A DNA stretch of 64,000 nt from Saprospira grandis str. Lewin. GTDB taxonomy: Bacteria > Bacteroidota > Bacteroidia > Chitinophagales > Saprospiraceae. The notes beneath the pieces are model-generated. The model was not told the DNA's origin. It saw only the letters and a program-made list of their open reading frames with translations, and did not search any database. This document shows positions 2,055-62,462 of the stretch, one piece after another. The translations under genes were made by a program, and so were the position numbers. The stretch covers positions 1,032,995-1,096,994 of the forward strand of contig NC_016940.1 of the NCBI RefSeq assembly GCF_000250635.1, read 5' to 3'. Each line of letters opens with the position of its first letter. Position 1 is the stretch's first letter.

Positions 2055-2142
2055 TGTTTTTATTTTTTTTCAAAAATACAACTAAAAAAAGAGGCTTTTC
2101 GTCAGAGGAGTATATTTAGTAATCATTTAATATCCCCCTCCT

Positions 2143-2658
2143 ATGAAAAACTTATTCTTTCTGGCCCTGGCCCTTCTCGGCCTTGGCCTCTCTTCCTGCC
2201 AAGAAGATAAAGAAGGCTACCTAGAGATTTCAAATATCAAACTACTTAACTATAACGAGTTCGATAAGTCATACTACGGCTATTATGGTCAGTTTTCTTG
2301 GGTAAATTGGGATCCAGAACTGCCCGGAAAAGCAGAAGCGAAATATCCCGATATTTTTGCTCGGGTCTATTTTCGTTATTCTAGCCGTAGAGTAGATACG
2401 ATCGTAAAGGAAACAAGAGTCTTGCATAATTGTCCCCATGGCCAAGAAGTCTACCTCCCCTTACAGAAAATGTCCTTTCCAGATGATACGGAAGCAACTG
2501 TTAGTATTCTGCTCGTAGACCATGATGAAGATAACTATCACAGAGGGATGCACTCCTTTAGGTTTACTCCAGCAGGACTCAAAAGAGACCAAATCGAAAC
2601 CGCCTATATTACAAGCGATGAAAATGGGGTCCTCCGATTTGATGTCAGCTACCACTAA
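2143..2658 (+). CDS. small lipoprotein, member 1 of a tandem paralog array
   Basis: Signal peptide plus lipobox MKNLFFLALALLGLGLSSCQ. The CCCCCTCCTATGAAAAA start context is shared by all four genes. The mature body resembles gene 3. Confidence 0.7.
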   Translation: MKNLFFLALALLGLGLSSCQEDKEGYLEISNIKLLNYNEFDKSYYGYYGQFSWVNWDPELPGKAEAKYPDIFARVYFRYSSRRVDTIVKETRVLHNCPHGQEVYLPLQKMSFPDDTEATVSILLVDHDEDNYHRGMHSFRFTPAGLKRDQIETAYITSDENGVLRFDVSYH

Positions 2659-2708
2659 CATGAGTAAGCAAAAGCTTTTTTAATTAAAAAAACATATCCC
2701 CCCCTCCT

Positions 2709-3248
2709 ATGAAAAATTTATTCTTTCTGGCCCTGGCCCTTCTCGGCCTTAGCCTCTCTTCCTGCCAAAAGGAAGAGGACCTTTCTCCCGCCGCCCCCTG
2801 TACTGACTGTATCGAAATTCTAAATATTCGGCTGCATAATTACATGGAGTTTAAGCTCTATGGTTACTACAACCACGTTTGGGACCATTGGGATAGAGAG
2901 GAAAGCTCTGCAATAGAAAAACGCCCAGACCTCTTTGTTCGCATTAGAGACGACACCTACTCCCAAAGAAGATACATCTATGAGGGAAGCATCTTAGCAG
3001 AGAACGCTCCTAGAGATTCTACCATTTTACTTACTGCCGAAAGCATATTTATTCCCGCCGACTCCTTTCCGAATGCTCGCATTCAAATAATGGATCAAGA
3101 CTATAGATCGAACATAAACCGATGGTATCATGATGAGGTAGGCAATTTTTACTTTAACCCTAGAGAAATTATGGATGACAAAATTTCCCATATCGTCCGT
3201 GGCCAAAGCGATGAAACTCAGATCAGTTTTGATGTTAAATTTCACTAA
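2709..3248 (+). CDS. small lipoprotein, paralog 2
   Basis: Signal peptide identical to gene 1. The mature N-terminus KEEDLSPAAPCTDCIEI is identical at nucleotide level to gene 4. Confidence 0.7.
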   Translation: MKNLFFLALALLGLSLSSCQKEEDLSPAAPCTDCIEILNIRLHNYMEFKLYGYYNHVWDHWDREESSAIEKRPDLFVRIRDDTYSQRRYIYEGSILAENAPRDSTILLTAESIFIPADSFPNARIQIMDQDYRSNINRWYHDEVGNFYFNPREIMDDKISHIVRGQSDETQISFDVKFH

Positions 3249-3262
3249 CTCCCCCCCCTCCT

Positions 3263-3799
3263 ATGAAAAACTTACTCTTTTTAACACTGGCCCTTATCGG
3301 CCTTGGCCTCTCTTCCTGCCAAAAGGAAGAAGCTCCATTAGCCCCAGTAGAACTTACTGGCATTACCTTATTAAACTATAATGAATTTAAGTCCGTTTAT
3401 TCGTACCAATATGCTACCTACTCCCGGGAAAGCTGGGATGAAGATGTTCCTGGACGGCCCCAAGAGAAATATGCCGATGTTTTTGTCCATGTTTATTACC
3501 GCCGTTCTCCTTATCAGGTAGATACACTGCTAAAAGGAAGAAATATCCTACATAATTGGCCCTATGACCAAAGTGCCAACATCCCCATCAGTCCTATAGC
3601 ATTTGAAACTGGAACAGAAGCAATGGTTGAAATCCGACTACTAGACTATGATGAAGCGGGTGCCCATGAAGTGATTGACACTTTTCTTTTTTCTATGGCA
3701 GCAGTCAGAAGAAACCAAATGGAAACGGCCTATCTTTCTACCTATAGCCATAATGCTAATACTGGCAGTAATATCCGCATAGATGTCAACTATAATTAA
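3263..3799 (+). CDS. small lipoprotein, paralog 3
   Basis: Lipoprotein signal MKNLLFLTLALIGLGLSSCQ. The body is similar to gene 1 (LLNYNEF..., ...KYADVFVHVYYRR...). Confidence 0.7.
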   Translation: MKNLLFLTLALIGLGLSSCQKEEAPLAPVELTGITLLNYNEFKSVYSYQYATYSRESWDEDVPGRPQEKYADVFVHVYYRRSPYQVDTLLKGRNILHNWPYDQSANIPISPIAFETGTEAMVEIRLLDYDEAGAHEVIDTFLFSMAAVRRNQMETAYLSTYSHNANTGSNIRIDVNYN

Positions 3800-3820
3800 A
3801 AAAACATATCCCTCCCTCCT

Positions 3821-4360
3821 ATGAAAAAATTACTCTTTTTAACACTAGCCCTTATCGGCCTTAGCCTCTCTTCCTGCCAAAAGGAAGAGGACCTTTCTCC
3901 CGCCGCCCCCTGTACTGACTGTATCGAAATTAGCAGTGTTCAATTACTTTACTATACGCATCTGGCCCCCTATTCTTACTATGGCCCTAGAGATTACTGG
4001 GATAGATATGCGACTAACCCAGAAGACCGCGCCCCCGATCTTTATGTAGCAATAACGGAGGTAGTCGAACGCGGCTATGACGCAACTACCCTTTGTAGCT
4101 CTCCTCCCATACAAAACTGCCCCTCTCTTCCAGGTTTACCAATGGATCTTCCCAAAGTGTATATCGATAATGATAGCGAATATGAGTACGCCATCTCTGT
4201 GATAGATGAGGATGTAAGTGAAGGAGAACATTACAACCGAGGTATGGCCCACTTTTATATTACAGCTACTGAGCTCAAGCGGACAAAGCCAGACTCCCTT
4301 ATTTTGGAAAGCCCTCAATACAATAATGCAGCCCTTCTCCTACTACTAAAATACCACTAA
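3821..4360 (+). CDS. small lipoprotein, paralog 4
   Basis: Signal peptide identical to gene 3. The first ~17 mature residues are identical to gene 2, so the family is mosaic. Confidence 0.7.
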   Translation: MKKLLFLTLALIGLSLSSCQKEEDLSPAAPCTDCIEISSVQLLYYTHLAPYSYYGPRDYWDRYATNPEDRAPDLYVAITEVVERGYDATTLCSSPPIQNCPSLPGLPMDLPKVYIDNDSEYEYAISVIDEDVSEGEHYNRGMAHFYITATELKRTKPDSLILESPQYNNAALLLLLKYH

Positions 4361-4367
4361 GCCCTAA

Positions 4368-4401
4368 GTCCCTGCATTACATTTAAACAGGGGCTTTTTT
4401 G
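4368..4401 (+). terminator. putative rho-independent terminator after the lipoprotein array
   Basis: Stem tccctg...cagggg followed by cttttttgg. Confidence 0.4.
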
Positions 4402-4703
4402 GCCCATAAAAAAAGCATCCTGGCGCTGCTACACCAAGATGCCCAATAGGCTTACACCTATTCTCATGAAAAATCTACTAATTGTAAGGGTAAGCTGCTT
4501 TATTTCTTACCCTTTGCTGCTTAGCTAAGATAAGGATTTATTCTTAATAGGCCCTTATTTTAAAAGAACTTTATCATTTCCATTAAAAAGCTAATAATCA
4601 ATATTCTTACAAGCAGCCCAGAAGCCCTATTGACAGCGGAGTAAATCCCCCTTTTCCAATATTTTATTTTAATTTTGTGCCCTAACCATCAGACCTCTCC
4701 TCT

Positions 4704-5864: not shown

Positions 5865-6201
5865 TTTTTGGGGCTGCCCCTGCGGCCTGTGGCCTTGGGT
5901 CGGGCCATTGCGCAGCTCGCAGGTCTGCTCGGCCCTTCGGCGCTTGCAGCGCCTCGGTCTGCCGCCTGCGGCGGCCCTGCTACAGCCCCTCAGCCGAGGC
6001 GCTGCGCGCCTTTGCGGCGGCTTCGCCGCCTGCTATACGCAAAACGGACCGCCAAGTTCTTGGCGGTCCGTTTCTATTTGGCCTAGGGGCCTGAAAGGGT
6101 GCCGCGAAGCGGCAGACCCAGCAGGCGAAGCCTGCGCAGGGCCGAGCAGACCTGCGAGCCCTGAAAGGGCCCGGCCGCCAAAGGCGGCAGGCCCCAAAAA
6201 A
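5865..6201. repeat. GC-rich REP-like palindromic element (composite, two inverted units)
   Basis: Contains the family cores gcgcagctcgcaggtctgctcggccc, ggtctgccgcctgcggcggccctgctacagcccctcagcc, and the inverted ggccgagcagacctgcgagccc with ggcaggccccaaaaaa. GC content is far above the flanks. Confidence 0.8.
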
Positions 6202-6203
6202 TC

Positions 6204-7652
6204 CTACTTCAACTGCCCTAAAGCATCTAGCAAATAAGCCCAGAATTTCTGTACCGAACTGATCTGTACCCGCTCATCAGGAGAATGCGCCCCCCGAATG
6301 TTGGGCCCAAAAGAAATCATCTGCATCTCCGGATAATGACGGCCCAAAATACCACACTCCAAACCCGCATGACAGGCATTTACATCGGGCTCCTCCTCAA
6401 AACGATCAAGGAAAAGCTGACGCATTTGGTCCACCAAACTAGAAGCCGGCAAAGGCTCCCAACCCGGATAACTGCCCGACAACTGCGTGTCGGCCCCCAA
6501 TAGTTCATACAATCCCTGAATGCTCTCGGCCAAAGCCCATTTCTCCGTGTCTACGGAGCTCCGACAAAGGCAAAGCACACTGTATTCCCCATTTTTGACC
6601 AGCAAACGCGCCAAGTTATTAGAGGTTTGGACCAAGCCCTCTATCTCGGGACTCATTCTGAAGATGCCGTTGGGCGTAGCCAATACCGCCGATAATAGGG
6701 CTTTTTGCTCCGCTTCTCCCAACTTGATGGCCGGTAGAGCTACCTCCTCTGCAGTGAAGCTAAGGCCGGGGTCAGTGCTGGCATATTCCGCCTTGAGCTC
6801 GGCCTCCAAAGCTGCTAGTTGTTCTTTGCATTGGGCCGCTTCTGCCTTGGGCAAAACCACAATAGCCCAGGCCTCTCGGGGAATCGCATTGCGCAATCCT
6901 CCCCCATCAAATTGGGCCAAAGACAAGGGAGAAAGCGCCCGAAGAACACGGGCCAATAATAGGTTGGCATTGCCCAAACCCTTAATAATATCCATACCCG
7001 AATGTCCACCACTCAAGCCTTTCAAACTGATTTTTAAGGCCAAATCTTCTTCTGCCCCTAAGGCCATAGGCGTATAGCTGCCCGCTACCGAGATATCTAC
7101 CCCACCAGCACAACCAATAGTCAATTCTTTGTCGTCTTCTGTGTCCAGATTGAGCAAGTAATCTGACTTTAACCAGTTGGGGCCCAAGCCCAAAGCACCC
7201 GTCATCCCCGTCTCTTCATCTATGGTAAATAGGGCCTCCAAAGGCGGATGCGGAATATCCGTACTGGCCAATAGGGCCATAATAGCCGCCACGCCAATGC
7301 CATTATCTGCCCCCAAGGTGGTGCCCTTGGCCTTTACCCAATCCCCCTCTACATACATCTCGATACCCTGGCTCGAAAAATCAAAATCGGTATCCGCATT
7401 CTTCTGATGCACCATGTCCAAATGGCTCTGTAAAAGAATAGTGGGACGGTCCTCTAGACCTGCTGTGGCTGGCTTTCGGACCAAAATATTCCCAACTTCA
7501 TCCTCCTCGGCCACTAATCCCAATTTGGATACATATTCACGCATAAATGCACATACCGCCTCCTCTTTTTTAGAGGGCCGAGGCACCGCATTTAGCTGAC
7601 TAAAGGCCTCCCATAATGCTTTTGGGGCCAATTCTGCTACTTTCTGACTCAT
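6204..7652 (-). CDS. pepD: aminoacyl-histidine dipeptidase (Xaa-His dipeptidase, peptidase M20C)
   Basis: 482 aa, HLDMV metal-binding motif, overall PepD-like organisation. Confidence 0.75.
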   Translation of the reverse strand: MSQKVAELAPKALWEAFSQLNAVPRPSKKEEAVCAFMREYVSKLGLVAEEDEVGNILVRKPATAGLEDRPTILLQSHLDMVHQKNADTDFDFSSQGIEMYVEGDWVKAKGTTLGADNGIGVAAIMALLASTDIPHPPLEALFTIDEETGMTGALGLGPNWLKSDYLLNLDTEDDKELTIGCAGGVDISVAGSYTPMALGAEEDLALKISLKGLSGGHSGMDIIKGLGNANLLLARVLRALSPLSLAQFDGGGLRNAIPREAWAIVVLPKAEAAQCKEQLAALEAELKAEYASTDPGLSFTAEEVALPAIKLGEAEQKALLSAVLATPNGIFRMSPEIEGLVQTSNNLARLLVKNGEYSVLCLCRSSVDTEKWALAESIQGLYELLGADTQLSGSYPGWEPLPASSLVDQMRQLFLDRFEEEPDVNACHAGLECGILGRHYPEMQMISFGPNIRGAHSPDERVQISSVQKFWAYLLDALGQLK

Positions 7653-7740
7653 GATTATATAGTATATTTGTTAGGCCAAAAAGCTAAGGAAAATTTAGAT
7701 AATGCCAAGGGATAAGCCCTATTTCTATCTGGCTTTTGCC

Positions 7741-8215
7741 TTTTATTTCGACGAAGGGCTTACCGTAATCCTTAGGAGGGCTTACTCTACCCCTTTCAAG
7801 GGGTTCAGCTAGCCATACCGAGGGCTTGTCGTAGTCCTCCCGAGGGGTTCAACTAGCCATACCGAGGGGGTGCTCTACCCCTCTCAAGAGGTTCAGCTAG
7901 CCCTACCGAGGGGTTACTCTACCCATCTCGAGGGGTTACCTTAGCCCTCTCGAGGGGTGCTCTCCCCCTCTCAAGGGGTTTAACTAGCCCTCCCGAGGGG
8001 ATACGCTAGCCCTCTCAAGGGGAGCAACTAGTACTACTGATGGGGCACTCTAGCCCTCCCAGGGGTTTGCCTTAGCCCTCCTGATGGGGTACGCTAGCCC
8101 TCTCAAGGGGGGCACCTAGCCATACCGAGGGGGTGCTCTCCCCCTCTACAGGACTTCCCCTGATCCTTCAGAGGGTCGTTCTTAGTCCTCAGAGGGATTC
8201 ATGCCCCCCCAGAAC
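7741..8215. repeat. degenerate tandem array of about 20 units of ~22 bp, each with a ccctc(t)cgagggg mini-palindrome
   Basis: Visible units include ctagccctctcgaggggttacc, ctagccctcccgaggggatacg and ctagccctctcaaggggagcaa. Non-coding. Confidence 0.8.
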
Positions 8216-8224
8216 TTTAGTTAA

Positions 8225-8440
8225 AGAAGCCCTAAAGAGGACCTAAACAAGTCCTAGCGAGGACTAGGGGCCAATCAAAAGAGGGCTTGGGCAAGCCCTA
8301 AAGACCATTTAGTCTATAGCAATTGAGGACTTGCCTAAGTCCATTCGAGGAGGTAGTAAAATGGAAGCGAGGACTTGCCTAGGTCCTGCGGAGGACCTAG
8401 GCAACATCAACGGAGGACCTATGAAAGTGCTACTGAGGGG
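8225..8440. repeat. hairpin-rich spacer with repeated gaggac..gtcctc stem-loops
   Basis: Repeats such as gaggacctaaacaagtcct and gaggacttgcctaagtcc / gaggacttgcctaggtcc, plus agggcttgggcaagccct. Confidence 0.6.
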
Positions 8441-8470
8441 GTAGAGTAATCCAAATGGCCAATTATGGGG

Positions 8471-8735
8471 CTCTTCAGGATTTTGTGTATTAGAATAAAA
8501 TTTGGGCCTTTAGCTTGTTGGGATTTAGCCAATAGTCGCCCAGGGACAAGCCCCTAGGCTAATCCAATGGAGTCAGCCCTCTTCGAGGGCCTCAACTGTT
8601 GATATACAAGGCCTTGTTCAGTTGTTATCGCAGAGAAAAACCTTATCCAAAGGCCCTCTTTAGAGGGCTGTCTGAAAAAGCTAGCCTAGGGGCTTGTCCC
8701 TAGGCAGCAAAAAGGAGAAACACAAAATTTTAAAC
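8471..8735 (+). mobile_element. 265-bp MITE-like element with terminal inverted repeats, copy 1
   Basis: About 90% identical to 43453..43716. Outer ends ggattttgtgt ... acacaaaatttt; inner inverted repeat tagtcgcccagggacaagcccctaggc ... gcctaggggcttgtccctaggc. No ORF. Confidence 0.65.
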
Positions 8736-8830
8736 AGACTCCAATTACAGTCTAATTAGTAAGATCTAGCTAAAAGCCCCCTTCTTTTATTTCTAAGATA
8801 AAAAGCAGACCTTGGGCAAAAATCAGTCAT

Positions 8831-10102
8831 ATGCCACAGCTTATCCGCTTTCTTATTTTGCTTTGTTTTCCCTTTATTCTTTTTGCTCAGCAGCCCTTGC
8901 GTTTGGTCGATCAACAGCTAGAACAACTGGTCCCTTTAGCCAATGGAGACTGGGGCTGGAGACCATTTTTAGAACTACCAACTACTTTAAAAACAGTAAC
9001 GGGCCAGGGGGAAGACATTTGGGCCATTAGTTTGGCCAATGAACTATTGCACTATAATAGAAGTCGAGATTACTGGGAAAACCTAGGCCAAATTGAAGGC
9101 CTTCCGGCCCTCATTCAAAGGAGTTTCCTCTATAAGGGGCAGCTGTATTTTCAATCTGGGGCCCTACTCTACCGTCTAGAGCTAGAAACTGAGGCCCAGC
9201 CAACTGTAGTCAAAAGAGGACTACCACTGCTGCTATCCAACTGGAGCTATCTGCCCAATCAGGGCCGTTTTTGGGCCATGCAATCTAGTGGGGCGCCCAT
9301 CTTTTTTGAGCCAGAGAGTGGTGTGATTGAACGGCCCAAAAAAACCTGGTTTAGGAATTTTGCTCGGGGGCAAAGCCAGGCCGAGGGACAACTTTGGCCC
9401 ATAGATGCAGAGCATTTTTTATACTTTAGTGTAGGGGCCCAAGAGCTCTACCTCCTCAATATGGCCAATTATGAAGCCTATAAATTGGGGCCCGTTCAGG
9501 GCATACAACCCAAGGCCGAAGTCCTTAGTCTCAATGGCCCTAAGCTTAAAAGCTTTCTTCCGCCAACGGCCAGCCGTTTGTATTGGGGTAAAGGCCTGCG
9601 AGGAGGCCGAATTAGCTGGTGGCAGCACCCTAGTCCAAAAATTGACCACTTTGAGCTAGAACGTAAGGAGGGAAGCAACAGCTCCTGGCTGATTGTCGGC
9701 AGCCTTAACGCCTATAATCCCCCCCATCAGGCAGGCTTTCATGCCCTAGATGATAGTCGAAAAAGGGGGAAATCAACGAGCTACCGCCTACTAGCGGTTA
9801 ATCCCTGGGGGCATAAGCGCTATTTACAAGAAATTTGCTTGGGCCCAGCCTGCCCTAAGGTCCAATTAGGTCCCAATATTTTATCGGCCCAAGAAGATTT
9901 ACGGCTCTATTTATCGGCCTTAAAGGGAGAATGGCTGAAAATAAAATGGAAAAGGGGCGGTAAAGTCGTTCAAAGCCAAGAAATCTATCTGGATTTACCC
10001 ACATATCAATTAACTTTGCCCGGACAGGCAGCGGGTCATTATGAGCTGTCTATTGAAAATGCCGACAACTGCCAGCGATTTCAGTTGTTTTATGGTTTTT
10101 AG
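8831..10102 (+). CDS. secreted hypothetical protein
   Basis: Signal peptide MPQLIRFLILLCFPFILFAQQ; 423 aa; no family recognised. Confidence 0.55.
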   Translation: MPQLIRFLILLCFPFILFAQQPLRLVDQQLEQLVPLANGDWGWRPFLELPTTLKTVTGQGEDIWAISLANELLHYNRSRDYWENLGQIEGLPALIQRSFLYKGQLYFQSGALLYRLELETEAQPTVVKRGLPLLLSNWSYLPNQGRFWAMQSSGAPIFFEPESGVIERPKKTWFRNFARGQSQAEGQLWPIDAEHFLYFSVGAQELYLLNMANYEAYKLGPVQGIQPKAEVLSLNGPKLKSFLPPTASRLYWGKGLRGGRISWWQHPSPKIDHFELERKEGSNSSWLIVGSLNAYNPPHQAGFHALDDSRKRGKSTSYRLLAVNPWGHKRYLQEICLGPACPKVQLGPNILSAQEDLRLYLSALKGEWLKIKWKRGGKVVQSQEIYLDLPTYQLTLPGQAAGHYELSIENADNCQRFQLFYGF

Positions 10103-12159: not shown

Positions 12160-12300
12160 TTTTGGGGCCTCCTGCCTACGGCAGGCGCTACGTTTCGCAG
12201 CTCGCAGGTCTGCTCGGCCCTTCGGCGCAAAGCGCCTCGGTCTGGCCTTCGGCCACTGCTACACATCGCTAGGCCAGTCCTCCCTTCGGTCGTCCTCTAG
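12160..12300. repeat. GC-rich REP-like element
   Basis: cgcagctcgcaggtctgctcggccc core. Confidence 0.75.
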
Positions 12301-14381: not shown

Positions 14382-14447
14382 AGTTTTTATTTAAATTTTT
14401 TCAAAAAATTATCAAAATAGTGAAGCTTTGGTCCTTTTTACGGTAAA

Positions 14448-14586
14448 CAGGCGGCGAAGCCGCCGCAGGCCTAGCGATGTGTAAGGGGGCGGCGAAGCCG
14501 CAGACCAAGGCCATCAGGCCGCAGGGCCGAGCGAATAGCGAGCCCTGAAACGTAGCGCCTGCCGAAGGCAGGAGGCCCCAAAAAAA
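14448..14586. repeat. GC-rich REP-like element
   Basis: Contains ggcggcgaagccgccgcagg, gggccgagcgaatagcgagccc and gaggccccaaaaaaa. Confidence 0.75.
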
Positions 14587-14589
14587 TCG

Positions 14590-16257
14590 CTAGATCAGTT
14601 TTCCAGTTTTGCGATTGTGAGCCATACGGGTGGCTAGAATATGTTCGCAGGGGCCTTTGCGCAATTTATTCATCTGAAAATGATTGCAATTGCATTCGGC
14701 TTGAACCATGCGGTCATCGGCATCGATGAGGAGTTGGCATTGGTAATTGCGCTGTTGTCCTTTGATCTGTGCCGATAGTCGAGTTTGGCCATTTTGCTGC
14801 GACTCTGCCGATAAATTGCTGAGGCGGTTTTGGTCCAAAATCTTGTTGGCTTTTTCTTCTTGTGGCGAGGCAAAGCGGAGCAACTTCATATCGAGTGGTT
14901 CGCGATGCAATTCCCGCAGGCGATACACGCCCAAGGTAGGATCAAAAATCACTCGGCCCGCTTGGGTGTAAGCTTGCAAGGAAGCGCTGACGATATCTCT
15001 GCCTAACTCTAGGCGTTCTGCTAGGCTATCTACCGACTCGAAATAAGTGCTTTTGAGGGCATCAAAAACGGTTTGTTTGGTCCAATCATCTACCTCTAAG
15101 CGAGGGGCGAGCAAATCAAAGTTACCAGCTCTGGACCAATCGTTATCGGTCCAGCCAGAAAGGCCCAAAGTAAAGACCATATCTCCCTCTAGTTGGGCCT
15201 CATAGAAAGAAGGCAAACCAGAACCGAGGAAGCTGACTGTAAATTTTTTGGCTTGTGGAATCAGGCGCTCTAAAATGAGTAAGCGGCGGCGGCCCCAAAT
15301 GCGGACCTCCTCTGCTTTTGGCCCATGATAAATAGAGCGGCGGCAGATAATTTCTTTATTCCAAGGTTCTACCACCACCTTAACGGGCTGCCCAGGGCGA
15401 AGTTGAAAGCGCAAAGAGCGGGGGCCATGTGTTTCCTTAAAGCGGCGCAAAAGCTGGCAGATGCTATGAATATCCATGGGATGCAGGTCAAAGCGAATGA
15501 GCGGCATCGTCATGGCAGAGCTCACTTGAAGGAAGCCGCGGACCCAGCTTTCGGGTAGGTCAATTTTGACCTCCTTATATAAATCTTGGTCCTCCGTTTG
15601 GATTTCGAAGCCAGAAGGATCTACCCGAAAATCGGTTTCCTTATAATTCCGAATCTTTTGAAACTCATTATAAAGGGCTGCGGAGTAATCAATATTGGTT
15701 GTTCCGCAAGAAAACTCATCAATATTCTTAAAGACATTATAGCCACAGCTGAGCTTACCATAGGTAGATTCATCTTGGCTAAAGCACTCAAAGAAAATGC
15801 TATCGGGATGAGTAGTGATAACGGGATCCAGGACGATCCAGGCATCAAAATCCTTTTTATAGAGGTAATTAAAATACTCTCTTTGTTTTTTGTAGAAATG
15901 CTGCATTACGCCTCGTTCCTGCTCTTCTACCCCAGCCAATTCTACCGAAATATCTTCGATACGTTGTTTAATATTGGCCTCATCTCCAGCAATTTCGCCA
16001 AGGTATTGGGCCAGCCAGACCTCTTCCTGCTCCTTGGCCCAGGCCAAATAGGCAGATTTATCACGAGGTTTGAAGCGAAGATCAGAAACCACTACGGCAT
16101 TCAAGGCAGAGATGGCTTCTCTAAAGGCAATTTTCTTATGCAATTGGCCCACAAAAAAAGTAGGCTCGCGCAAACTATCGGGGGCAAAGGACATGGCCGT
16201 TTGCCCAGCTTTATTCTTCACAGAGGAAGTTCCTCCATACTTATAATTAAATAACAT
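14590..16257 (-). CDS. SWIM zinc-finger family protein
   Basis: C-terminal CxC-x11-CxH signature AECNCNHFQMNKLRKGPCEHILA; 555 aa. Confidence 0.65.
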   Translation of the reverse strand: MLFNYKYGGTSSVKNKAGQTAMSFAPDSLREPTFFVGQLHKKIAFREAISALNAVVVSDLRFKPRDKSAYLAWAKEQEEVWLAQYLGEIAGDEANIKQRIEDISVELAGVEEQERGVMQHFYKKQREYFNYLYKKDFDAWIVLDPVITTHPDSIFFECFSQDESTYGKLSCGYNVFKNIDEFSCGTTNIDYSAALYNEFQKIRNYKETDFRVDPSGFEIQTEDQDLYKEVKIDLPESWVRGFLQVSSAMTMPLIRFDLHPMDIHSICQLLRRFKETHGPRSLRFQLRPGQPVKVVVEPWNKEIICRRSIYHGPKAEEVRIWGRRRLLILERLIPQAKKFTVSFLGSGLPSFYEAQLEGDMVFTLGLSGWTDNDWSRAGNFDLLAPRLEVDDWTKQTVFDALKSTYFESVDSLAERLELGRDIVSASLQAYTQAGRVIFDPTLGVYRLRELHREPLDMKLLRFASPQEEKANKILDQNRLSNLSAESQQNGQTRLSAQIKGQQRNYQCQLLIDADDRMVQAECNCNHFQMNKLRKGPCEHILATRMAHNRKTGKLI

Positions 16258-19699: not shown

Positions 19700-20034
19700 C
19701 TCCGGGGATTCCCCAGAGCTGTTTGTAAGCTGCAGCAGCGCCCTAGACGGTTATTTCTCTCTAAAAAAACCGCCAACAGCACCCCTGAGGGATTCCTTAG
19801 GGAATCCCGAGGAGGGGCGGGTGGGCGGGGTCGTGAAAACGAATGAGGAGCGCAGCGACGAATACCGCTTTTCTGCGAAGGCCCGCAGGGCCGCTGAGGG
19901 CCCAGCGCTGCGGAGCGGGTGGCCGAAGGCCAGACCGAAGCAGGCGAAGCCTGCGCAGGGCCGAGCGAGCAGCGAGCCCCGCAGCATAGCGGCGGCCGCC
20001 CGCCCTTTTTGGGGCGGCCGCGGGCCCCAAAAAC
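19700..20034. repeat. GC-rich REP-like element (composite) including the gggattccttagggaatccc palindrome variant
   Basis: Shares cores with the other copies. The same palindrome variant occurs at 56930..56990. Confidence 0.75.
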
Positions 20035-25962: not shown

Positions 25963-26023
25963 AGACTAATTTATATAGATAGGCGTTGGAGAAAGAGCTT
26001 CAAAAGAATGTTTATTTTATTTT

Positions 26024-26160
26024 TTTGGGGCCTCCCGCCTGCGGCGGGCGCTACGTTCCGCAGCTCGCAGGTCTGCTCGGCCCTGCAGCGCTTTCAGCGC
26101 TTTGGTCTGGCCCTACGGGCCACTGCTGCACATCGCTAGGCCAAAAGCGCCTGGCCCCAC
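26024..26160. repeat. GC-rich REP-like element
   Basis: ggggcctcccgcctgcggcgggcgctacgttccgcagctcgcaggtctgctcggccc. Confidence 0.75.
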
Positions 26161-32687: not shown

Positions 32688-32808
32688 CCTAGCGATGTGC
32701 AAGGGTGGCCGTCAGGCCAGACCGAGCCAGCGAAGCTGGCGAAGGGCCGAGCAGACCTGCGAGCCCTGGAACGTAGCGCCGCAGCTTTGCTGCGGAGGCC
32801 CCAAAACA
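32688..32808. repeat. GC-rich REP-like element
   Basis: Contains gggccgagcagacctgcgagccctgg, ending gcggaggccccaaaa. Confidence 0.75.
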
Positions 32809-32817
32809 GCAGGCTTC

Positions 32818-36030: not shown

Positions 36031-36169
36031 AAAGCTCTTGATCTAGATTTTGGGATGCTTGGGGCCCTCTTTAAGGAAAGGGCTCAGAAATGGCGAAAAT
36101 ACGAACAAAGCCATTATTTTTGTAGGCCTTAGGGCTTTTTTCGGTTCAAGGGATGAATTCTTCTGTTTT

Positions 36170-36375
36170 TTTGGGGCCTCCTGCCTACGGCAGGCGCTAC
36201 GTTTCGGGGCTCGCAGGTCTGCTCGGCCCTGCGCGGGCTGCGCCCGCTGGCTCTGGCGCTTCGCGCCACCCCTCCACATCGCTAGGCCGATCAAAAACTC
36301 CCTTTGGTCCTTGAAAGGCAGCCTTTGGCTGCCCAAAAGCTCGCTTTGCTCGCCCTGCAAACTGCTTTTTTGCTC
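36170..36375. repeat. GC-rich REP-like element
   Basis: ggggcctcctgcctacggcaggcgctacgtttcggggctcgcaggtctgctcggccc. Confidence 0.75.
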
Positions 36376-36467
36376 CTAAACCAACAGAAAAAGCCTTTTT
36401 TTACGTTTCTAAATTAGGCCCCTTTTGTTTGGACCAAAAAAATAGGGCCAAACAGTCCTTGGCCACA

Positions 36468-36665
36468 ACAAGCCCTTTAGGGCGTCTTCGACGACCAAAG
36501 GGAGTAACCGATGGTAGGCAGTGCGGCACAGCCGCAGACCTAGGCGGCTTTGCCGCCGCAGGGCCGAGCAGAGCTGCGAGCTGCCGAACGACAACAAGCC
36601 CTTTAGAGTGCAGTTCGACGACCAAAGGGAGTAACCGCAGCAAGCGCAGCGCAGCTGAGGCCCAA
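36468..36665. repeat. REP-like element, sub-variant with a duplicated caagccctttag.gtcttcgacgaccaaagggagtaacc module
   Basis: The ~40-bp module is directly repeated at 36468..36510 and 36590..36640. A related copy occurs at 62290..62395. Confidence 0.7.
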
Positions 36666-41834: not shown

Positions 41835-41854
41835 ACTATATTTTAGCCTATTGT

Positions 41855-42020
41855 TTTTTGGGGCTGCCCCCTCAGTTCCTTCGGGGTCGGGCTGTTTCGC
41901 AGCTCGCAGGTCTGCTCGGCCCTGCGGGCTTTTTCGCTCCGCTTCAAAAGCCCTAGGTCTGCCGCTTCGCGCCACTGCTGTCCATCCCTCAGCCGGCTCG
42001 CTTCGCTCGCCCCTGCCGCA
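41855..42020. repeat. GC-rich REP-like element
   Basis: ttttggggctgccccctcag...ttcgcagctcgcaggtctgctcggccc...ggtctgccgcttcgc. Confidence 0.75.
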
Positions 42021-43055: not shown

Positions 43056-43299
43056 TTTTATTCTCGACTTAGAGCCGTTATAGCCCTTGCTTTCCCCCTT
43101 TTTATCGTCCTATCCCCTCCTTTAGTCTTTGGTTCTACTCATTTATTCTAGCTATCTAGTAGTTGTACTCCTCTAATACAGTAATTTACTGCTTAGATGC
43201 AGTAGCTGTACTGCTCGCATGCGGTCCTTTACTGTATACTAGTGGTAGTCAAAGTCCTTTATATAGGTTCTGGAAGTCCATGGTATAGGTTGTAGGACC

Positions 43300-43445
43300 C
43301 CAAATAGACCTCCCTAGATCTATCCTATAAGGTCTATAGACCTACCTCATACAGTATAGAAACCTACCCAATACAGTTCAGCACCTACCTCATGCAGTAT
43401 AAGAACCTACCTCATACAGTATAGGAACCTACCCGATGCAGTTCA
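43300..43445. repeat. tandem array of about 6 degenerate 22-bp units (acctacc[tc][cg]at[ag]cagt[at][tc]ag[ga]a)
   Basis: Visible units include acctacctcatacagtatagaa, acctacccaatacagttcagc, acctacctcatgcagtataaga and acctacccgatgcagttcagaa. It lies directly upstream of MITE copy 2. Confidence 0.75.
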
Positions 43446-43452
43446 GAAGGGA

Positions 43453-43716
43453 CTGTTCAGGATTTTGTGTATTAGAATAAAATTTGGGCCTTTAGCTGCT
43501 TAGGATTTGGCCAGTAGTCGCCTAGGGACAAGCCCCTAGGCTAATCCAATGGAGTCAGCCCTGACAAGGGCCTCAACTGTTGATATACAAGGCCTTGTTC
43601 AGTTGTTATTGCAGAGAAGAACCTTATCCAAAGGCCCTCTTTAGAGGGCTGTCTGAAAAAGCTAGCCTAGGGGCTTGTCCCTAGGCGCAGGAAAAGGCAA
43701 ACACAAAATGTTAAAC
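43453..43716 (+). mobile_element. MITE-like element, copy 2
   Basis: About 90% identical to 8471..8735 over its full length, with the same nested terminal inverted repeats. Confidence 0.65.
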
Positions 43717-43735
43717 CGTCTCGCATTTGCATCTA

Positions 43736-43822
43736 GAGGCGGCGAAGCCGCCGCAGGGCCGAGCAGACCTGCGAGCTGCGCAATGGCCCGACCCGAGCGA
43801 AGCGAGTGGGCAGCCCCAATAA
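43736..43822. repeat. GC-rich REP-like element (single unit)
   Basis: Contains ggcggcgaagccgccgcagggccgagcagacctgcgagctgcgcaatggcccgacccgagcgaagcg, ending gggcagcccc. Confidence 0.75.
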
Positions 43823-43949
43823 AATAATCCTCCCCAAAAAGCGGAGCTAGGCAGCAAAGACCCTATCTTCAACGTATTAGAAACAACTGGGAAAAGCTAG
43901 CCCAACCGAGAGAATGCACCCCATTTCCCTCCACTGATAATTATCTGCT

Positions 43950-46489: not shown

Positions 46490-46564
46490 GGAGGATGATG
46501 GGTTTCGAACCCACGACCTCCAGAACCACAATCTGGCGCTCTAACCAACTGAGCTACACCCTCC
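46490..46564 (-). tRNA. tRNA-His (anticodon GTG) with encoded G-1
   Basis: Reverse complement folds as a cloverleaf: acceptor GAGGGTG/CATCCTC with G-1:C73, D-arm GCTCAGTTGGTTAGAGC, anticodon loop TTGTGGT, T-arm GTGGGTTCGAACCCAT. No encoded CCA. Confidence 0.85.
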
Positions 46565-46670: not shown

Positions 46671-46745
46671 GGAGGATGATGGGTTTCGAACCCACGACCT
46701 CCAGAACCACAATCTGGCGCTCTAACCAACTGAGCTACACCCTCC
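46671..46745 (-). tRNA. tRNA-His (GTG), second identical copy
   Basis: Sequence identical to 46490..46564. Confidence 0.85.
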
Positions 46746-47337: not shown

Positions 47338-47480
47338 TTTGGGCAGCCGCAGGCTGCCTTTGTTGTGGCCTAGCGCTGTGGAGGGGTGGCCGCAGGCCAG
47401 ACCGAAGCGCGAAGCGCTGAAGGGCCGAGCAGGCTTGCGAGCCCCGCAACATAGCGCCGCAGCTTTGCTGCGGAGGCCCC
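47338..47480. repeat. GC-rich REP-like element
   Basis: Contains ggccagaccgaagcgcgaagcgctgaagggccgagcaggcttgcgagcccc, ending gcggaggccccaaaa. Confidence 0.7.
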
Positions 47481-47483
47481 AAA

Positions 47484-47519
47484 ACATAAAAAAAGCCAAC
47501 CCTAAAAAAAGAGTTGGCT
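47484..47519 (-). terminator. rho-independent terminator
   Basis: On the minus strand, stem agccaac/gttggct is followed by ttttttt. Confidence 0.5.
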
Positions 47520-54029: not shown

Positions 54030-54180
54030 TACAGGCGGCGAAGCCGCGGAAGGCTGAGGGGCTGTAGCAGGGCCGCCGAAGGCGGCAGACCAAAGGCTTT
54101 TTAAGCGAAGCGAAAAGCCTGCAGGGCCGAGCAGACCTGCGAGCTGCGAAATGGCCCGACCCGCCCAAAGGGCGGGGCAG
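54030..54180. repeat. GC-rich REP-like element
   Basis: Contains ggcggcgaagccgcgg, gggccgagcagacctgcgagctgcgaaatggcccgacccgcc and gggcagccccaaaaaaa. Confidence 0.75.
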
Positions 54181-54182
54181 CC

Positions 54183-54213
54183 CCAAAAAAAGACGATCTA
54201 AAATAGATCGTCT
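54183..54213 (-). terminator. rho-independent terminator
   Basis: On the minus strand, stem agacgatct/agatcgtct is followed by ttttttt. Confidence 0.55.
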
Positions 54214-54219
54214 GAAAGG

Positions 54220-54747
54220 TTAGTAGAGTTGCTCTAGCCCTTTTAAAGGCCCCATTTGCTCCTCTATCTCATTTTCCCAGCTTTGTTCTAAGCGTCGGCC
54301 CAGATGCAAAAAGAGCTTGCGGTCTTTGGGCGTCCACTCGCAGCGGGCGCCCTTGTTGCTGTTCAGGACCCGCTCTTCGGATAGTGCCCTGTACAAAATA
54401 TGTTGATTTTCATCAATTTCGAAGTGGAGGGCCTGCAACAGCCGCTCTTTATCCTCAAAATGGCCCTGAATACGCAGCAAGGCCTGCCCCCGAATTTTCT
54501 TGAGCTTGATTTTTTCAATCTTCAGGCCCAGTTCCTCATGATGAAAAGGGGCCTTGCTTTCTAACCGAGCCACAAACTCCTGGGCTTGAGCCTCTGCCTT
54601 TTCGGGATACTGAAGATGAACAAACTCCATTTTGAAGCTTTGCTTTTTAAAATTGAGTTCCAAAAGGGCCTCTTCGGCCAAAATTGGGCTTTGCATTTGG
54701 AACAAAAGCGCCGTGAAAAAAAGGAGCTCGTTGAGTAAAATAGCCAT
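54220..54747 (-). CDS. hypothetical protein
   Basis: 175-aa ORF with an N-terminal hydrophobic segment; no family recognised. Confidence 0.4.
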   Translation of the reverse strand: MAILLNELLFFTALLFQMQSPILAEEALLELNFKKQSFKMEFVHLQYPEKAEAQAQEFVARLESKAPFHHEELGLKIEKIKLKKIRGQALLRIQGHFEDKERLLQALHFEIDENQHILYRALSEERVLNSNKGARCEWTPKDRKLFLHLGRRLEQSWENEIEEQMGPLKGLEQLY

Positions 54748-55254: not shown

Positions 55255-56706
55255 ATGAACAAGATACCGAATAAAGGCCAAGATCAACAGCATATTTTAG
55301 CGCAATTAAAGGCCTTTAAAGGGAAAGATTTACCCTGGCAAGCAGGGAAAATCTTTGCCTATATTTACCAAACCACCCCCGAGGCCAAGGCGGTGGCCGA
55401 GGCGGCCTACCTTTCTTTTTTGCCCGAAAATGGCTTGGACCCCACGGCTTTCCCCTCGCTTTTGCATTTGGAGCAGCAGATTATTGGACAGCTAGCGCCT
55501 TTGTTGGGCGGCAATGAAGACGTAAAAGGAAATTGTACCTCTGGCGGGACCGAAAGCGTGATTTTAGCAGTAAAAGCGGCCCGAGATTATGCCCGAGCCA
55601 AGTATCCCGATCAAAAAGAGTTTGAAATTTTGGTCCCTTCTACGGCGCATCCTTGCTTTTATAAGGCGGCTCATTATCTAAATATTGGCATTCAATCTAT
55701 AGATGTAGACCCGCAAACACAACGCCTAAAGGTGGCCGATATGCGGGCCGCTATTAGCAAAAAAACGATTTTGTTGGTGGGCTCTGCGCCCTCTTATGCG
55801 CATGGCGTGATGGACCCCATTGCCGAGCTTTCTGATTTGGCCCTAGAAAAAGATTTGCTTTTGCATGTAGATGCTTGCGTGGGCGGTATGTATTTGCCCT
55901 TTTTGCGGCAGTTGGGTCATGAGGTTCCGCCCTTTGGCTTTGAGTTGCCGGGCGTGACTTCTATTTCTTGCGATTTGCATAAGTTTGGCTATGTGCCCAA
56001 GGGCTGCTCTACGATTTTGTACCGCAATAAGGAGCTCCGCCAACACCAGATTTTTAGTTGCTCGCAATGGCCAGGCTATACGGTGATCAATCCCACGGTT
56101 TTATCGAGTAAAACAGGGGCGCCTATGGCGGCCGCTTGGGCCATGTTTCAATATATGGGCCTAGAAGGCTACCAAAATGCGGTGGCCGATTGCCAGGCGG
56201 CTAGAGATGCCGTGATTGCAGCTTTGGAGCAGTTGCCTAGCCTTCAATTGATTGGCCAGCCCGATATGAGTTTGCTGGCTTTTGCGAGTAAAGATGAGGA
56301 CCTCAGCATTTTTGATTTGGCCGATCAGCTCAATGAAAAGGGCTGGTATGTGCAAGTTCAATTGGCGAGCCCGCATTCTCCTGCGGCCATTCATTTGAGC
56401 ATTAGTCATTTTAATTGCCCACATATTCCAAGTTTTGTCGCTGATTTGCAGGAAACTGTAGCCGAGCTCATGAGTAATCCAGTAGAAGAAAATGAGCTAT
56501 TAGCTGCCCTCGACCATTCTATGTTGGCCCTTTTGATGGAAGATTTTGATCCCGCTATGTTGGGCCAATTTCAAGAATTGATGGGCCTAGAGTCTGCAGA
56601 AGGCGGCCTACCGGCCGATATGGGCGCGGTCAATCAGTTGCTCAATGTTCTTTCGGCCAAGCAACGAGAAGATGTTTTGCTGGCCTTTATGAATGAGTTG
56701 ATTTAA
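55255..56706 (+). CDS. PLP-dependent group II decarboxylase family enzyme (glutamate decarboxylase / sphingosine-1-phosphate-lyase-like)
   Basis: SISCDLHKFGYVPKGCS PLP-lysine motif, with HVDACVGG upstream; 483 aa. Confidence 0.6.
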   Translation: MNKIPNKGQDQQHILAQLKAFKGKDLPWQAGKIFAYIYQTTPEAKAVAEAAYLSFLPENGLDPTAFPSLLHLEQQIIGQLAPLLGGNEDVKGNCTSGGTESVILAVKAARDYARAKYPDQKEFEILVPSTAHPCFYKAAHYLNIGIQSIDVDPQTQRLKVADMRAAISKKTILLVGSAPSYAHGVMDPIAELSDLALEKDLLLHVDACVGGMYLPFLRQLGHEVPPFGFELPGVTSISCDLHKFGYVPKGCSTILYRNKELRQHQIFSCSQWPGYTVINPTVLSSKTGAPMAAAWAMFQYMGLEGYQNAVADCQAARDAVIAALEQLPSLQLIGQPDMSLLAFASKDEDLSIFDLADQLNEKGWYVQVQLASPHSPAAIHLSISHFNCPHIPSFVADLQETVAELMSNPVEENELLAALDHSMLALLMEDFDPAMLGQFQELMGLESAEGGLPADMGAVNQLLNVLSAKQREDVLLAFMNELI

Positions 56707-56711
56707 GTTTT

Positions 56712-56990
56712 GGGGCCTGCCGCCTTCGGCGGCCGGGCTATTGCGCAGCTCGCAAGTCTGCTCGGCCCTGCGCGGGCTTTGCCCGCTGGCTCGGCGGCTT
56801 TGCCGCCCTGCTGCATATCCCTAGGCCGCTCATCCGATGAGCATTTTTTGTAGCTGTCGCCTTTGGCCCTAAAACCGCCCCTTTTAAGCGGTATTCGTCG
56901 CTTCGCTCCTCATTCCTTAATATTAACCCGCCCACCCTCCCCTCCAATGGATTCCCTAAGGAATCCATTGGGGGAGTTTGGGCCAATATT
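56712..56990. repeat. GC-rich REP-like element (composite; includes the ccaatggattccctaaggaatccattgg palindrome)
   Basis: Contains gcgcagctcgcaagtctgctcggccc. 56930..56990 is the reverse orientation of the 19780..19815 variant. Confidence 0.7.
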
Positions 56991-58021: not shown

Positions 58022-58061
58022 ACTAAAGGTATTATGAGAAAGTGGAAATTATCTGCTCCAA

Positions 58062-58210
58062 AAGCGGGCGAAGCCCGCTACGGCTGAGGGATGGAAAGTG
58101 GGGCGGCGAAGCCGCAGACCCAGCGGGCGAAGCCCGCGCAGGGCCGAGCAGACCTGCGAGCCACGACAGAGCCCGACCCGAGCCGAAGGCGAGGGGCAGC
58201 CCCAAAAAAA
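58062..58210. repeat. GC-rich REP-like element
   Basis: Contains ggcggcgaagccgcagacc, gggccgagcagacctgcgagcc and gggcagccccaaaaaaa. Confidence 0.75.
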
Positions 58211-58213
58211 GAA

Positions 58214-61349: not shown

Positions 61350-61500
61350 TCTTTTGGGGCCCGCGGCCAGCAAGCTGGCCGCCGCTATGCTGCGGGGCTC
61401 ACAGGGCTGTTCGGCCCTGCAGCCGCCTGCGGCGGCTTTGGTCTGGCCTTCGGCCACCCCTCCGCAGCGCTGGGCCGCTCAGCGGTCTTTTTTCTTTGGG
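61350..61500. repeat. GC-rich REP-like element
   Basis: Contains ggggcccgcggcc, gctatgctgcggggctc, ctgttcggccc and ggtctggccttcggccaccc. Confidence 0.7.
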
Positions 61501-61551
61501 CCCTCTTCTTCGGCGGCTGAATTTAGGGAGTAGCCGCCTAGCTGGGAGACG

Positions 61552-61628
61552 GTTTAAAATTTTGTGTGCGCCCTTTCCTGCGCCTAGGGACAAGCCCCTA
61601 GGCGACTATTGGCCAAATCCCGAATAGC
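61552..61628 (-). mobile_element. internally deleted (solo-TIR) inverted copy of the MITE-like element
   Basis: gtttaaaattttgtgt..gcgcctagggacaagcccctaggcgactattggccaaatcc is the reverse complement of the two ends of the 265-bp element, joined with the ~190-bp core missing. Confidence 0.55.
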
Positions 61629-62050
61629 TTCCCCCGCTTTACAAATGCCGTTTCACAATTTCAGAATAGCTTGCCGCAACTGTAAGATGCTGTTTTGCAA
61701 TTTCAGAATAGCTTGCCGCAACTGTAAGATGCCGTTTTGCAATTTCAGAATAGCTTGCCGCAACTGTAAGATGCCGTTTTGCAATTTCAGAATAGCTTGC
61801 CGCAACTGTAAGATGCCGTTTTGCAATTTCAGAATAGCTTGCCGCAACTGTAAGATGCCGTTTTGCAATTTCAGAATAGCTTGCCGCAACTGTAAGATGC
61901 TGTTTTGCAATTTCAGAATAGCTTGCCGCAACTGTAAGATGCTGTTTTGCAATTTCAGAATAGCTTACCGCAACTGTAAGATGCTGTTTTGCAATTTCAG
62001 AATAGCTTACCGCAACTGTAAGATGCTGTTTTGCATCTGCAGAATAGGGC
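61617..62050. repeat. 42-bp tandem repeat array, about 10 units
   Basis: Unit tttcagaatagcttgccgcaactgtaagatgc[ct]gttttgcaa. Nine perfect-phase copies at 61659, 61701 ... 61995 plus degenerate end units. Variants ctg/ccg and cttgccgc/cttaccgc cluster by position. No spacers, so not CRISPR. Confidence 0.85.
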
Positions 62051-62171
62051 ATAAAGGTTTTGATGAGGTATTTGATCGCTGTCAATGGGTATAACTCAGG
62101 GCTTCAGCCCATGGGCCCAAAACTATCCAGCCGCCGAAGAAGAAAGCCAAAAGAAAAAAGACAGATGAGCA

Positions 62172-62397: not shown

Positions 62398-62462
62398 GAA
62401 TAAAGCGACTTAGGCATCAACCTTTGGGTCTTGCAGATCGTTAAAGCGGTAAAAGAGAAAAC

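Follow-up and report, generated by a model that had tools for sequence, protein, structure and literature searches.

A 274-bp repeat family of Saprospira grandis that is very probably a MITE built on IS256-family ends

Insertion sequences of the IS256 family are listed in the ISfinder catalogue with target duplications of 8-9 bp. Among bacterial MITEs, MITEPsy1 of Pseudomonas syringae has been shown to transpose, has its ends in common with ISPsy2 and duplicates 4 nt of its target (PMC3189936). Eukaryotic elements related to Foldback and Mutator have long terminal repeats composed of short tandem sub-repeats; an account of a Mutator/Foldback family has been published (PMC3169594). In this work we describe a repeat that is found three times in the window, that is, in the whole 64-kb stretch of Saprospira DNA that was analysed, and which in Saprospira grandis very probably represents a MITE of 274 bp that uses the ends of an insertion sequence of the IS256 family (Mutator type). 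A search of the Saprospira literature on repeats and transposases found no description of this family, which as far as searched is new to that literature; the kind of element, a MITE, is already known.

The three copies, their parts and the tandem arrays adjoining them are located in the window as follows.

7740..8466, no strand: tandem array at the left side of copy A, period 22/44 bp, regular over 7776-8147 and continued by degenerate units to the insertion point
8459..8466, no strand: left copy of the target-site duplication of copy A, CCAATTAT, read from the sequence
8467..8741, plus strand: complete MITE copy A of 275 bp, matched by nhmmer over profile positions 1-274 with a score of 325
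8467..8488, plus strand: left terminal inverted repeat of copy A, GGGGCTCTTCAGGATTTTGTGT, a fuzzy match to the family left repeat GGGACTGTTCAGGATTTTGTGT, at which the homology between copies begins
8538..8559, plus strand: inner palindromic arm 1 of copy A, GCCCAGGGACAAGCCCCTAGGC, which could base-pair either internally or with arm 2
8684..8705, plus strand: inner palindromic arm 2 of copy A, GCCTAGGGGCTTGTCCCTAGGC, followed on the minus strand by TAGCTTTTTC and terminator-like
8720..8741, plus strand: right terminal inverted repeat of copy A, ACACAAAATTTTAAACAGACTC, whose reverse complement GAGTCTGTTTAAAATTTTGTGT matches the IS256-type terminal repeat beside PF00872 transposase genes
8742..8747, no strand: right copy of the target-site duplication of copy A, decayed, CAATTA, identified by comparison with empty sites
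43140..43446, no strand: tandem array abutting the left end of copy B, period 21/22/43 bp
43449..43722, plus strand: MITE copy B, full length, 274 bp, from the profile match
43449..43470, plus strand: left terminal repeat of copy B
43520..43541 and 43665..43686, plus strand: the two inner arms of copy B
43701..43722, plus strand: right terminal repeat of copy B
61546..61629, minus strand: MITE copy C, left-truncated short form (profile positions 46-79/93 and 217-274)
61546..61567, minus strand: right terminal repeat of copy C
61582..61603, minus strand: single hairpin of copy C, beyond which the left internal part runs to 61629
61630..62047, no strand: tandem array abutting the left-facing side of copy C, period 42 bp, 9.6 units, 97% matches

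Alignment of copies A and B revealed 91% identical columns and a similarity that ends abruptly at both sides. An earlier note, made from the window sequence, had placed these two full copies at 8471..8735 and 43453..43716 with about 90% identity; the identity holds, while the limits are those of the list, 8467-8741 and 43449-43722. The outer inverted repeats are 22 nt long and not about 11 nt as first read (left GGGACTGTTCAGGATTTTGTGT, right ACACAAAATTTTAAACAGTCTC, reverse complement of the latter GAGACTGTTTAAAATTTTGTGT); they match at 18 of 22 positions and in all complete copies stand exactly at the homology limits, and the four differences between left and right repeat (CAGG versus TAAA) are identical in every copy. 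The interior consists of two inverted copies of a 22-nt palindromic sequence, that of arm 2 in the list, each palindromic around a 6-nt centre, and of a core of about 125 bp between these arms which contains two further small hairpins. Comparison across copies showed that the hairpin stems are nearly invariant and that the mid-core and the loops are variable. Since the inverted palindromes are nested between the terminal repeats, the whole element would be able to fold back on itself.

Within 3 mismatches, five occurrences of the 20-nt inner arm CCTAGGGGCTTGTCCCTAGG were counted in the window (four exact and one with 1 mismatch), and the left internal motif GGATTTGGCCAATAGTCGCC is present three times, the expectation from shuffles being 0.00 in both cases. 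Copy C joins profile positions 46-93 to 217-274. It had been taken for an inverted copy in which the core is deleted and the two ends are fused, of which the inversion and the loss of the core were confirmed and the fusion of both ends was not, the left terminal repeat being absent. Copy A contains no ORF of at least 50 aa, and a 50-aa ORF with a TTG start (43675..43827) clips only the right end of copy B and overlaps the adjoining G+C-rich repeat, in agreement with the claim that the element carries no ORF.

The family was searched by scanning the exact 20-nt arm against one genome per species. The scan gave 61 genome loci, 60 of them in S. grandis DSM 2844 and one, a chance match, in a Rhizobiales assembly; the search for further copies proposed earlier was therefore answered by the 60 loci of DSM 2844. 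A 274-position profile built from full copies was then searched against the 61 loci and detected 19 full copies, 27 'medium' copies (in which 36-94 positions are missing at the left), about 5 copies that are short or consist of a left part, 10 right-part copies and 21 other fragments. These figures are a lower bound for DSM 2844, whose genome accordingly contains no fewer than 19 full copies, along with about 60 that are shortened or partial. Pairwise identities between full copies ranged from 81 to 99% (median 89%), and this divergence of 1-19% indicates that much of the family is old. The window belongs to another S. grandis strain than DSM 2844: the first 9.7 kb of the window is 90-95% identical to the corresponding DSM 2844 locus (L050), where the orthologue of copy A has an identity of 98.9%. 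All copies are intergenic. The three window copies hinted at a fixed orientation to downstream genes, which was not upheld over 53 copies, among which no consistent orientation to neighbouring genes was found. A plasmid or phage origin was likewise rejected, since a blastn search with 'distant' settings of plasmid and phage collections gave no match to the element in either. Copies of the Saprospira type are also borne by two contigs of one metagenome sample, Ga0193958 (L071 and L107); that of L071 is a mini form of about 95 bp with no hairpin at all.

A metagenome scan with the query GACTGTTYARRATTTTGTGT matched at least 120 contigs. Most of the contigs listed break about 100 bp inside one abundant repeat with the terminus GAGACTGTTCAGAATTTTGTGT, and in longer contigs this terminus lies about 30-110 bp from a transposase gene. 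The sequence GAGACTGTTCA(G/A)AATTTTGTGT adjoins transposase genes in at least eight loci, including L182, L072, L135, L161, L128, L148 and L155, and the terminus-adjacent transposase genes comprise at least eight distinct ones, with identities of 27-100% to the L182 transposase as determined by tblastn. Two of the transposases were scanned against Pfam and both proved to belong to PF00872, Transposase_mut (Mutator family), with E values of 7.6e-106 and 6.2e-94. The ends of the MITE are identical at 20 of 22 bases to the terminal repeats found beside PF00872 transposase genes in many metagenome contigs, and this match indicates that the Saprospira element bears the ends of a widespread IS256-family lineage. 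In L182 and L128 a second, imperfect repeat is located at the opposite end of the insertion sequence. Homologues of the L128 transposase carry the source label 'IS256 family transposase [Bacteroidota bacterium]'.

The matching IS256-family lineage is also present in Bacteroidota, the phylum to which Saprospira itself belongs. The window and the loci of DSM 2844, together about 550 kb or about 12% of a genome, yielded no IS256-family transposase gene and no longer element bounded by such ends, and tblastn of an IS256-type transposase against the same S. grandis DNA returned nothing. None of the best 120 homologues of the nearest Bacteroidota transposase, that of L128, is labelled Saprospira; they are either unlabelled or assigned to other Bacteroidota.

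Analysis of the sequences flanking the copies revealed target duplications matching at 8 of 8 positions in L011 (CTATTCGG), 7 of 8 in L028 and 6 of 8 in L046, and in a control with mismatched left and right flank pairs only 0.5% reached 6 of 8 or more. Most copies whose left end directly abuts an array have no recognisable target duplication. Copy A lies in the spacer between an M20 peptidase gene and the downstream gene, and the syntenic spacer was recovered from two relatives, Saprospira sp. CCB-QB6 (CP116808.1; L196) and a closer relative represented by a Logan contig (L197). Exactly the 275 bp of the element is absent from both, and no match to the element was found anywhere at these two loci. 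The empty sites carry a single GAATTAT (L196) or CAATAAT (L197) where the window reads CCAATTAT, element, CAATTA; the sequence 3' of CAATTA in the window, CAGTCTAATTAG, aligns with CAGCCTATTCAG in L196. A target-site duplication, of which none had seemed obvious from the window, is therefore present around copy A and exists as a single copy in the empty sites of the relatives.

Copy B together with its array is absent from the same intergenic spacer in L189, while in the complete genome CP110854.1 (L188) the site is occupied by an array of greater length, a short form truncated at its left and a tandem remnant, 17 nt long, of a right end. Since the array is missing from L189 too, and no target duplication is seen there, the copy B polymorphism could be a deletion and not an insertion. 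Insertion polymorphism between strains, named in the earlier note as a check on mobility, thus takes the form of exact empty sites for copy A (L196 and L197) and of the absence of copy B from L189.

Taken together, the element is 274-275 bp long and non-coding, has exact terminal repeats and an 8-bp duplication, and is dispersed in copies that are polymorphic. Its ties to the IS256 family are terminal repeats like those flanking PF00872 genes and the 8-bp length of the duplication. The proposal of a non-autonomous transposable element (MITE) is accordingly borne out by the multiple copies, the IS256-type terminal repeats, the 8-bp duplications and the polymorphism between strains and species with empty sites. 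An IS256-type transposase supplied from elsewhere would bind the two 22-bp terminal repeats, and from the known behaviour of IS256 the element would be expected to move by copy-out/paste-in via a circular intermediate.

The shorter forms of the family can be related to the interior of the full element. The inverted arms share the 8-nt direct repeats GCCTAGGG and CCCTAGGC because each arm is palindromic. Of the two possible deletions, the one between the first direct-repeat pair would leave a single hairpin bearing the arm-2 loop and the one between the second pair a single hairpin bearing the arm-1 loop. A single hairpin with the arm-2 loop was found in copy C, L022, L049 and L021, and one with the arm-1 loop in L188. 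Since both predicted products exist, the short forms are recurrent deletion products and not an ancestral state into which the core was inserted. Copy C, being devoid of the left terminal repeat (positions 1-45), should be immobile.

The 27 medium copies have common truncation points (about 61 and about 266), diagnostic substitutions and a downstream module, TATTAGTCCCTCAACTTTTTC... Two of them lie just beyond CRISPR arrays; among the neighbours of medium copies, a Rhs/YD toxin fragment is located downstream in L007 and a small immunity-like gene downstream in L014. The simplest reading is that the medium copies represent one truncated MITE copy carried along within a larger repeat.

The three arrays listed above, one at the left side of each window copy and passed over in the earlier note, are the only arrays of such period in the 64-kb window. 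Of about 29 arrays with a period of 21, 22 or 42-44 bp that the window and the DSM 2844 loci contain, about 27 lie within about 100 nt of the left side of the element and none at its right side, a count that is biased in that the loci were chosen for carrying the element; conversely, an array adjoins the left end in about 21 of the 27 copies in which this end is present. The junction between array and element falls at profile position 1, 46/47, 53, 59 or 182. Array units differ by locus and can by eye be sorted into a small number of related types that are found again in the metagenome contig L107. The 21-mer arrays have a conserved AT-rich segment of 65 nt at their far side (8 aligned loci); within the Saprospira literature this array 'leader' is undescribed as far as searched.

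Comparison of the copy A locus between strains indicated that its array exists without the MITE in L196 and L197 and that the MITE entered the last unit of the array, a degenerate one. This array has about 2-3 units in CCB-QB6, 7.2 units of 22 bp in DSM 2844 and 8.5 units of 44 bp in the window; the L197 contig begins inside the array, so that only L196 gives a length for the MITE-free array. The copy B array is longer in L188 and absent in L189. Tandem duplication also affects the terminal repeats themselves, both in the MITE (L042 and L047, 10 nt; L188, 17 nt) and in insertion sequences of the metagenome (14, 22, 33 and 52 nt; L103, L138, L105 and L156). Short-period arrays are found beside IS ends in L128 and L073 as well, in another organism, and those flanking the insertion sequence of L128 are, by eye, inverted copies of each other.

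Several origins of the arrays were considered and rejected. Local alignment against shuffles gave p<0.05 for only 1-2 of about 32 arrays when the units were compared with the terminal repeats, and comparison with the element interior gave no general signal, the 13-nt match in L006 (p=0.005) being one among 42 tests. The idea that array and element form one transposed unit gains no general support, as outer 8-bp duplications match no better than controls; in L010 only, an inverted right element end is located beyond the array, with a hand-read match of 7/8 (AAATAGGC/AAATGGGC). What had looked like a distal 'conserved module' on the far side of the arrays is the ubiquitous G+C-rich REP-like repeat of the genome. 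The flanking arrays are not CRISPR arrays, being head-to-tail 21/22/42-44-bp units without spacers; true CRISPR arrays with a period of about 71 bp are present in L007 and L024 and look quite different.

The array association is unexplained by ordinary IS256 transposition. We favour oriented insertion of the MITE at array edges, i.e. a target preference, possibly followed by array growth, and this is the weakest step of our account; the target preference is favoured since the array at copy A pre-existed. A mechanistic coupling of IS256-type ends to arrays of about 21/42 bp (two or four helical turns), either by oriented edge targeting or by array expansion, is conceivable and is put forward as a tentative idea that we think is probably wrong; hints of it are the one-sided placement of the arrays, the copy A comparison, the tandemly duplicated terminal repeats and the arrays beside IS ends in another organism.

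These data have to be weighed against three other readings of the same repeats. The copies could be structured ncRNA genes or cis-regulatory RNA leaders or terminators whose inverted repeats are kept for RNA folding, as the earlier note had offered as an alternative. The element does fold far better than shuffles (z = -5.6 for the plus strand and -7.8 for the minus strand), its stems are the part that hardly varies, and arm 2 on the minus strand forms a terminator-like hairpin followed by a T-run, which is the sole regulatory-looking feature; good folding is, however, expected of any nested inverted repeat. RNAalifold with 48 copies detected a compensatory change in only 1 of 31 predicted pairs and a covariation term of +0.19 kcal/mol, so that the folding and covariation analysis proposed earlier gave a strong fold but did not uphold an RNA family. 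A recurrent T-to-C substitution at arm 1, seen in copy A, L050, L012 and L028, is uncompensated, and the same four mismatches kept by the terminal repeats in all copies fit two distinct protein sites and not a helix. In Rfam 15 no match to the element reached the gathering score or passed by E-value, the best in 7600-8900 being 22.4 bits against a gathering score of 42, and over the window only two tRNAs reached it. The inconsistent orientation to flanking genes speaks against an RNA gene, for which a clean filled/empty-site polymorphism with target duplication would also be unexpected, and we regard this reading as extremely improbable. The element could instead be a pair of REP palindromes of the REPIN kind, mobilised by a RAYT (an IS200/IS605-like Y1 transposase), with the arms as the active part and the outer repeats incidental. 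The arms are indeed inverted hairpin-forming palindromes about 126 nt apart, like a REP doublet; the arm-core-arm block occurs without the left terminal repeat and in other repeat contexts in about 27 medium copies; and the hairpin-free mini form of a related metagenome organism (L071) would allow the block to be a nested passenger. The medium copies are, however, a sequence subfamily of their own, and their common truncation and module fit one truncated MITE amplified inside a larger repeat. The homology of full copies stops at the IS256-type repeats and not at the arms, and it is the outer repeats that are flanked by the 8-bp target duplications. Insertion of REP or REPIN sequences is not known to make such duplications, and a REPIN-like origin is in our judgement highly improbable.

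The arrays, in turn, suggest reading the element as a fixed terminal module within a larger locus, composed of AT-rich leader, tandem array and terminal module, that would serve as a transcribed repeat-RNA locus or a protein-binding array, with the MITE-like features as secondary ones. This would account for the placement of the arrays on the left and never on the right, for the conserved far-side segment of the 21-mer arrays, for the recurrence of unit types across loci and in L107, for the two medium copies situated just past true CRISPR arrays, where the array is again on the left, and for the joint absence of array and element from L189. The copy A array is nevertheless present without the element in L196 and L197, and L008 and L011 have no array and yet have target duplications. 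In L056 the leader-array stands the other way round, and 42-mer units are found in either orientation with respect to the element. No 8-bp duplication surrounds array plus element, the units derive neither from the terminal repeats nor from the element interior, and the array count is affected by the choice of loci noted above. We consider an array-based unit very unlikely, and the element is discussed below as an IS256-type MITE.

The same genome is full of a separate G+C-rich REP-like family.

As a MITE, the family is a routine addition to the MITE catalogue, and through it the Saprospira repeat is connected with a clade of IS256-type elements in Bacteroidota whose ends are unusually conserved. 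Its insertions are usable as markers of strain differences. Look-ups of exact proteins around copies B and C gave only short Logan contigs ending at the repeats, and the repeats explain the breaks of short-read Saprospira assemblies at these sites. If the one-sided tie to arrays reflected a choice of target, or an expansion of arrays, by the transposition machinery, bacteria would have in it a counterpart to the tandem sub-repeats with which eukaryotic Mutator and Foldback elements end, and a coupling of this kind would offer a handle on the origin of short-period arrays in bacterial intergenic DNA.

The resemblance to REP and REPIN sequences lies in the interior of the Saprospira MITE, with two inverted hairpin-forming palindromes around a spacer; the difference is that outer IS256-type repeats and 8-bp duplications delimit the mobile unit. 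With the eukaryotic Foldback and Mutator elements, the MITE has in common a transposase superfamily (Mutator, IS256), a foldback architecture and tandem repeats by the ends, whereas the Saprospira arrays are one-sided, variable between loci and, at copy A, present without the element; the comparison is an analogy and membership is not claimed. The likeness to the IS256 family consists of ends identical at 20 of 22 bases, the 8-bp duplication and an imperfect match between left and right end, a feature of L182 and L128 too, while the MITE differs in having no transposase gene and a length of only 274 bp, and its interior is unrelated to the IS interiors seen, except that a short subterminal stretch rich in A+T is, by eye, similar to the end of L128. 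Like MITEPsy1 and other bacterial MITEs, the element is small, non-coding and multi-copy, with terminal repeats borrowed from an insertion sequence, target duplications and strain polymorphism. It differs from MITEPsy1 in using another IS family and another duplication length, and is further distinguished by its nested pair of palindromes, its short and mini deletion forms and its one-sided tie to tandem arrays.

Besides the MITE (a 274-bp non-coding element with IS256-type terminal inverted repeats), intergenic tandem arrays with periods of 21, 22 or 42-44 bp and a very abundant G+C-rich repeat family were identified in the window, at the following positions.

Window 7740-8466: tandem array
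Window 43140-43446: tandem array
Window 61630-62047: tandem array
Window 5895-6203, 12160-12290, 14446-14590, 19880-20030, 26020-26150, 32700-32810, 36165-36600 and 41850-42000: G+C-rich repeat
Window 43730-43830, 47365-47490, 54030-54220, 56705-56830, 58060-58240, 61370-61520 and 62150-62400: G+C-rich repeat (further copies)

The G+C-rich family is distinct from the MITE and by its appearance looks like a REP or terminator-type repeat. Its unit of ~100-130 bp contains the core GGCCGAGCAGACCTGCGAGC and several GC hairpins, occupies many intergenic regions in either orientation and frequently terminates in GGGGCC...AAAAA. The palindrome CTGTAGGTTTCAACCTACAG, whose variants include GTGGGTTTTAACCCAC, is likewise small and dispersed and recurred beside MITE fragments and REP-like repeats; it was located in S. 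grandis DSM 2844 at loci L001, L007, L018, L021 (e.g. ~3400-3440), L030 and L051.

Tandem arrays of the same periods were also found in DSM 2844 at L015, L022, L023, L036, L042, L047, L057 and other loci. Their units enclose the short palindromes GCTAGC, CTCGAG, GTCGAC and AACTAGTT, while a conserved AT-rich segment of 65 nt (CCAATTGTTAGGAAATTGTTAAAAATGAAAATAATGTAACAAAATCAAAAAGGGCAAAAGTT) lies on one flank of the 21-mer-type arrays. An array of the 21/22/42-44-bp class is also present in the locus from Saprospira sp. CCB-QB6, which carries no MITE.

Analysis of the medium copies, the element form that is missing between 36 and 94 profile positions at its left end, revealed that two of them adjoin true CRISPR arrays of DSM 2844 (L007 113-2562 and L024 2225-7987; repeat TATACTAAACCCATTGCAGGCGAAGCAGCATTGAAAC, period ~71 bp). 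The copies lie 104 nt (L007) and 32 nt (L024) beyond the last CRISPR repeat, and the trailer sequence between array and copy is identical in both loci. Regions with several medium copies include L001 and L030, and the module TATTAGTCCCTCAACTTTTTC...GGAGAGATAAAGAAA comes after every one of these copies. L007 4093-6531 encodes a 680-aa Rhs/YD-repeat toxin C-terminal fragment followed by a small lipoprotein-like gene, and L014 2379-2762 holds a small gene, possibly of the immunity type.

Four tandem paralogues spaced ~560 bp apart are located at window 2132-3888, and the signal sequence that opens each of them is lipoprotein-like (MKKLFFLALALLGLGLSSCQ...). The orthologous locus of DSM 2844 lacks an equivalent of window 2144-4404, and copy number therefore varies between strains. 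Two minus-strand tRNA genes (window 46490-46563 and 46671-46744), 181 bp apart, gave equal Rfam scores of 67.2 bits.

The terminal repeat is itself tandemly duplicated, with periods of 10, 14, 17, 22, 33 and 52 nt, and such duplications were seen at ends of the Saprospira MITE as well as at those of related ISs.

L103 8-35, L138 99-140, L105 68-120 and L156: duplications, metagenome contigs
L042 ~2352-2371 and L047 ~2795-2814: duplications, DSM 2844
L188 ~2680-2720: duplication, CP110854.1
L115 181-270: tiny IS256-type derivative
L096 ~4480-4550, minus strand: tiny IS256-type derivative

The derivatives, ~70-90 bp long and bearing these same ends, are from unrelated metagenome contigs; that of L115 is made up of one hairpin between the two terminal repeats. 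In another metagenome contig, the IS256-type IS has a further transposase-like ORF beside it (L182 1756-2634; 292 aa); judged by its sequence, its putative product looks like an IS3-family integrase-type protein.
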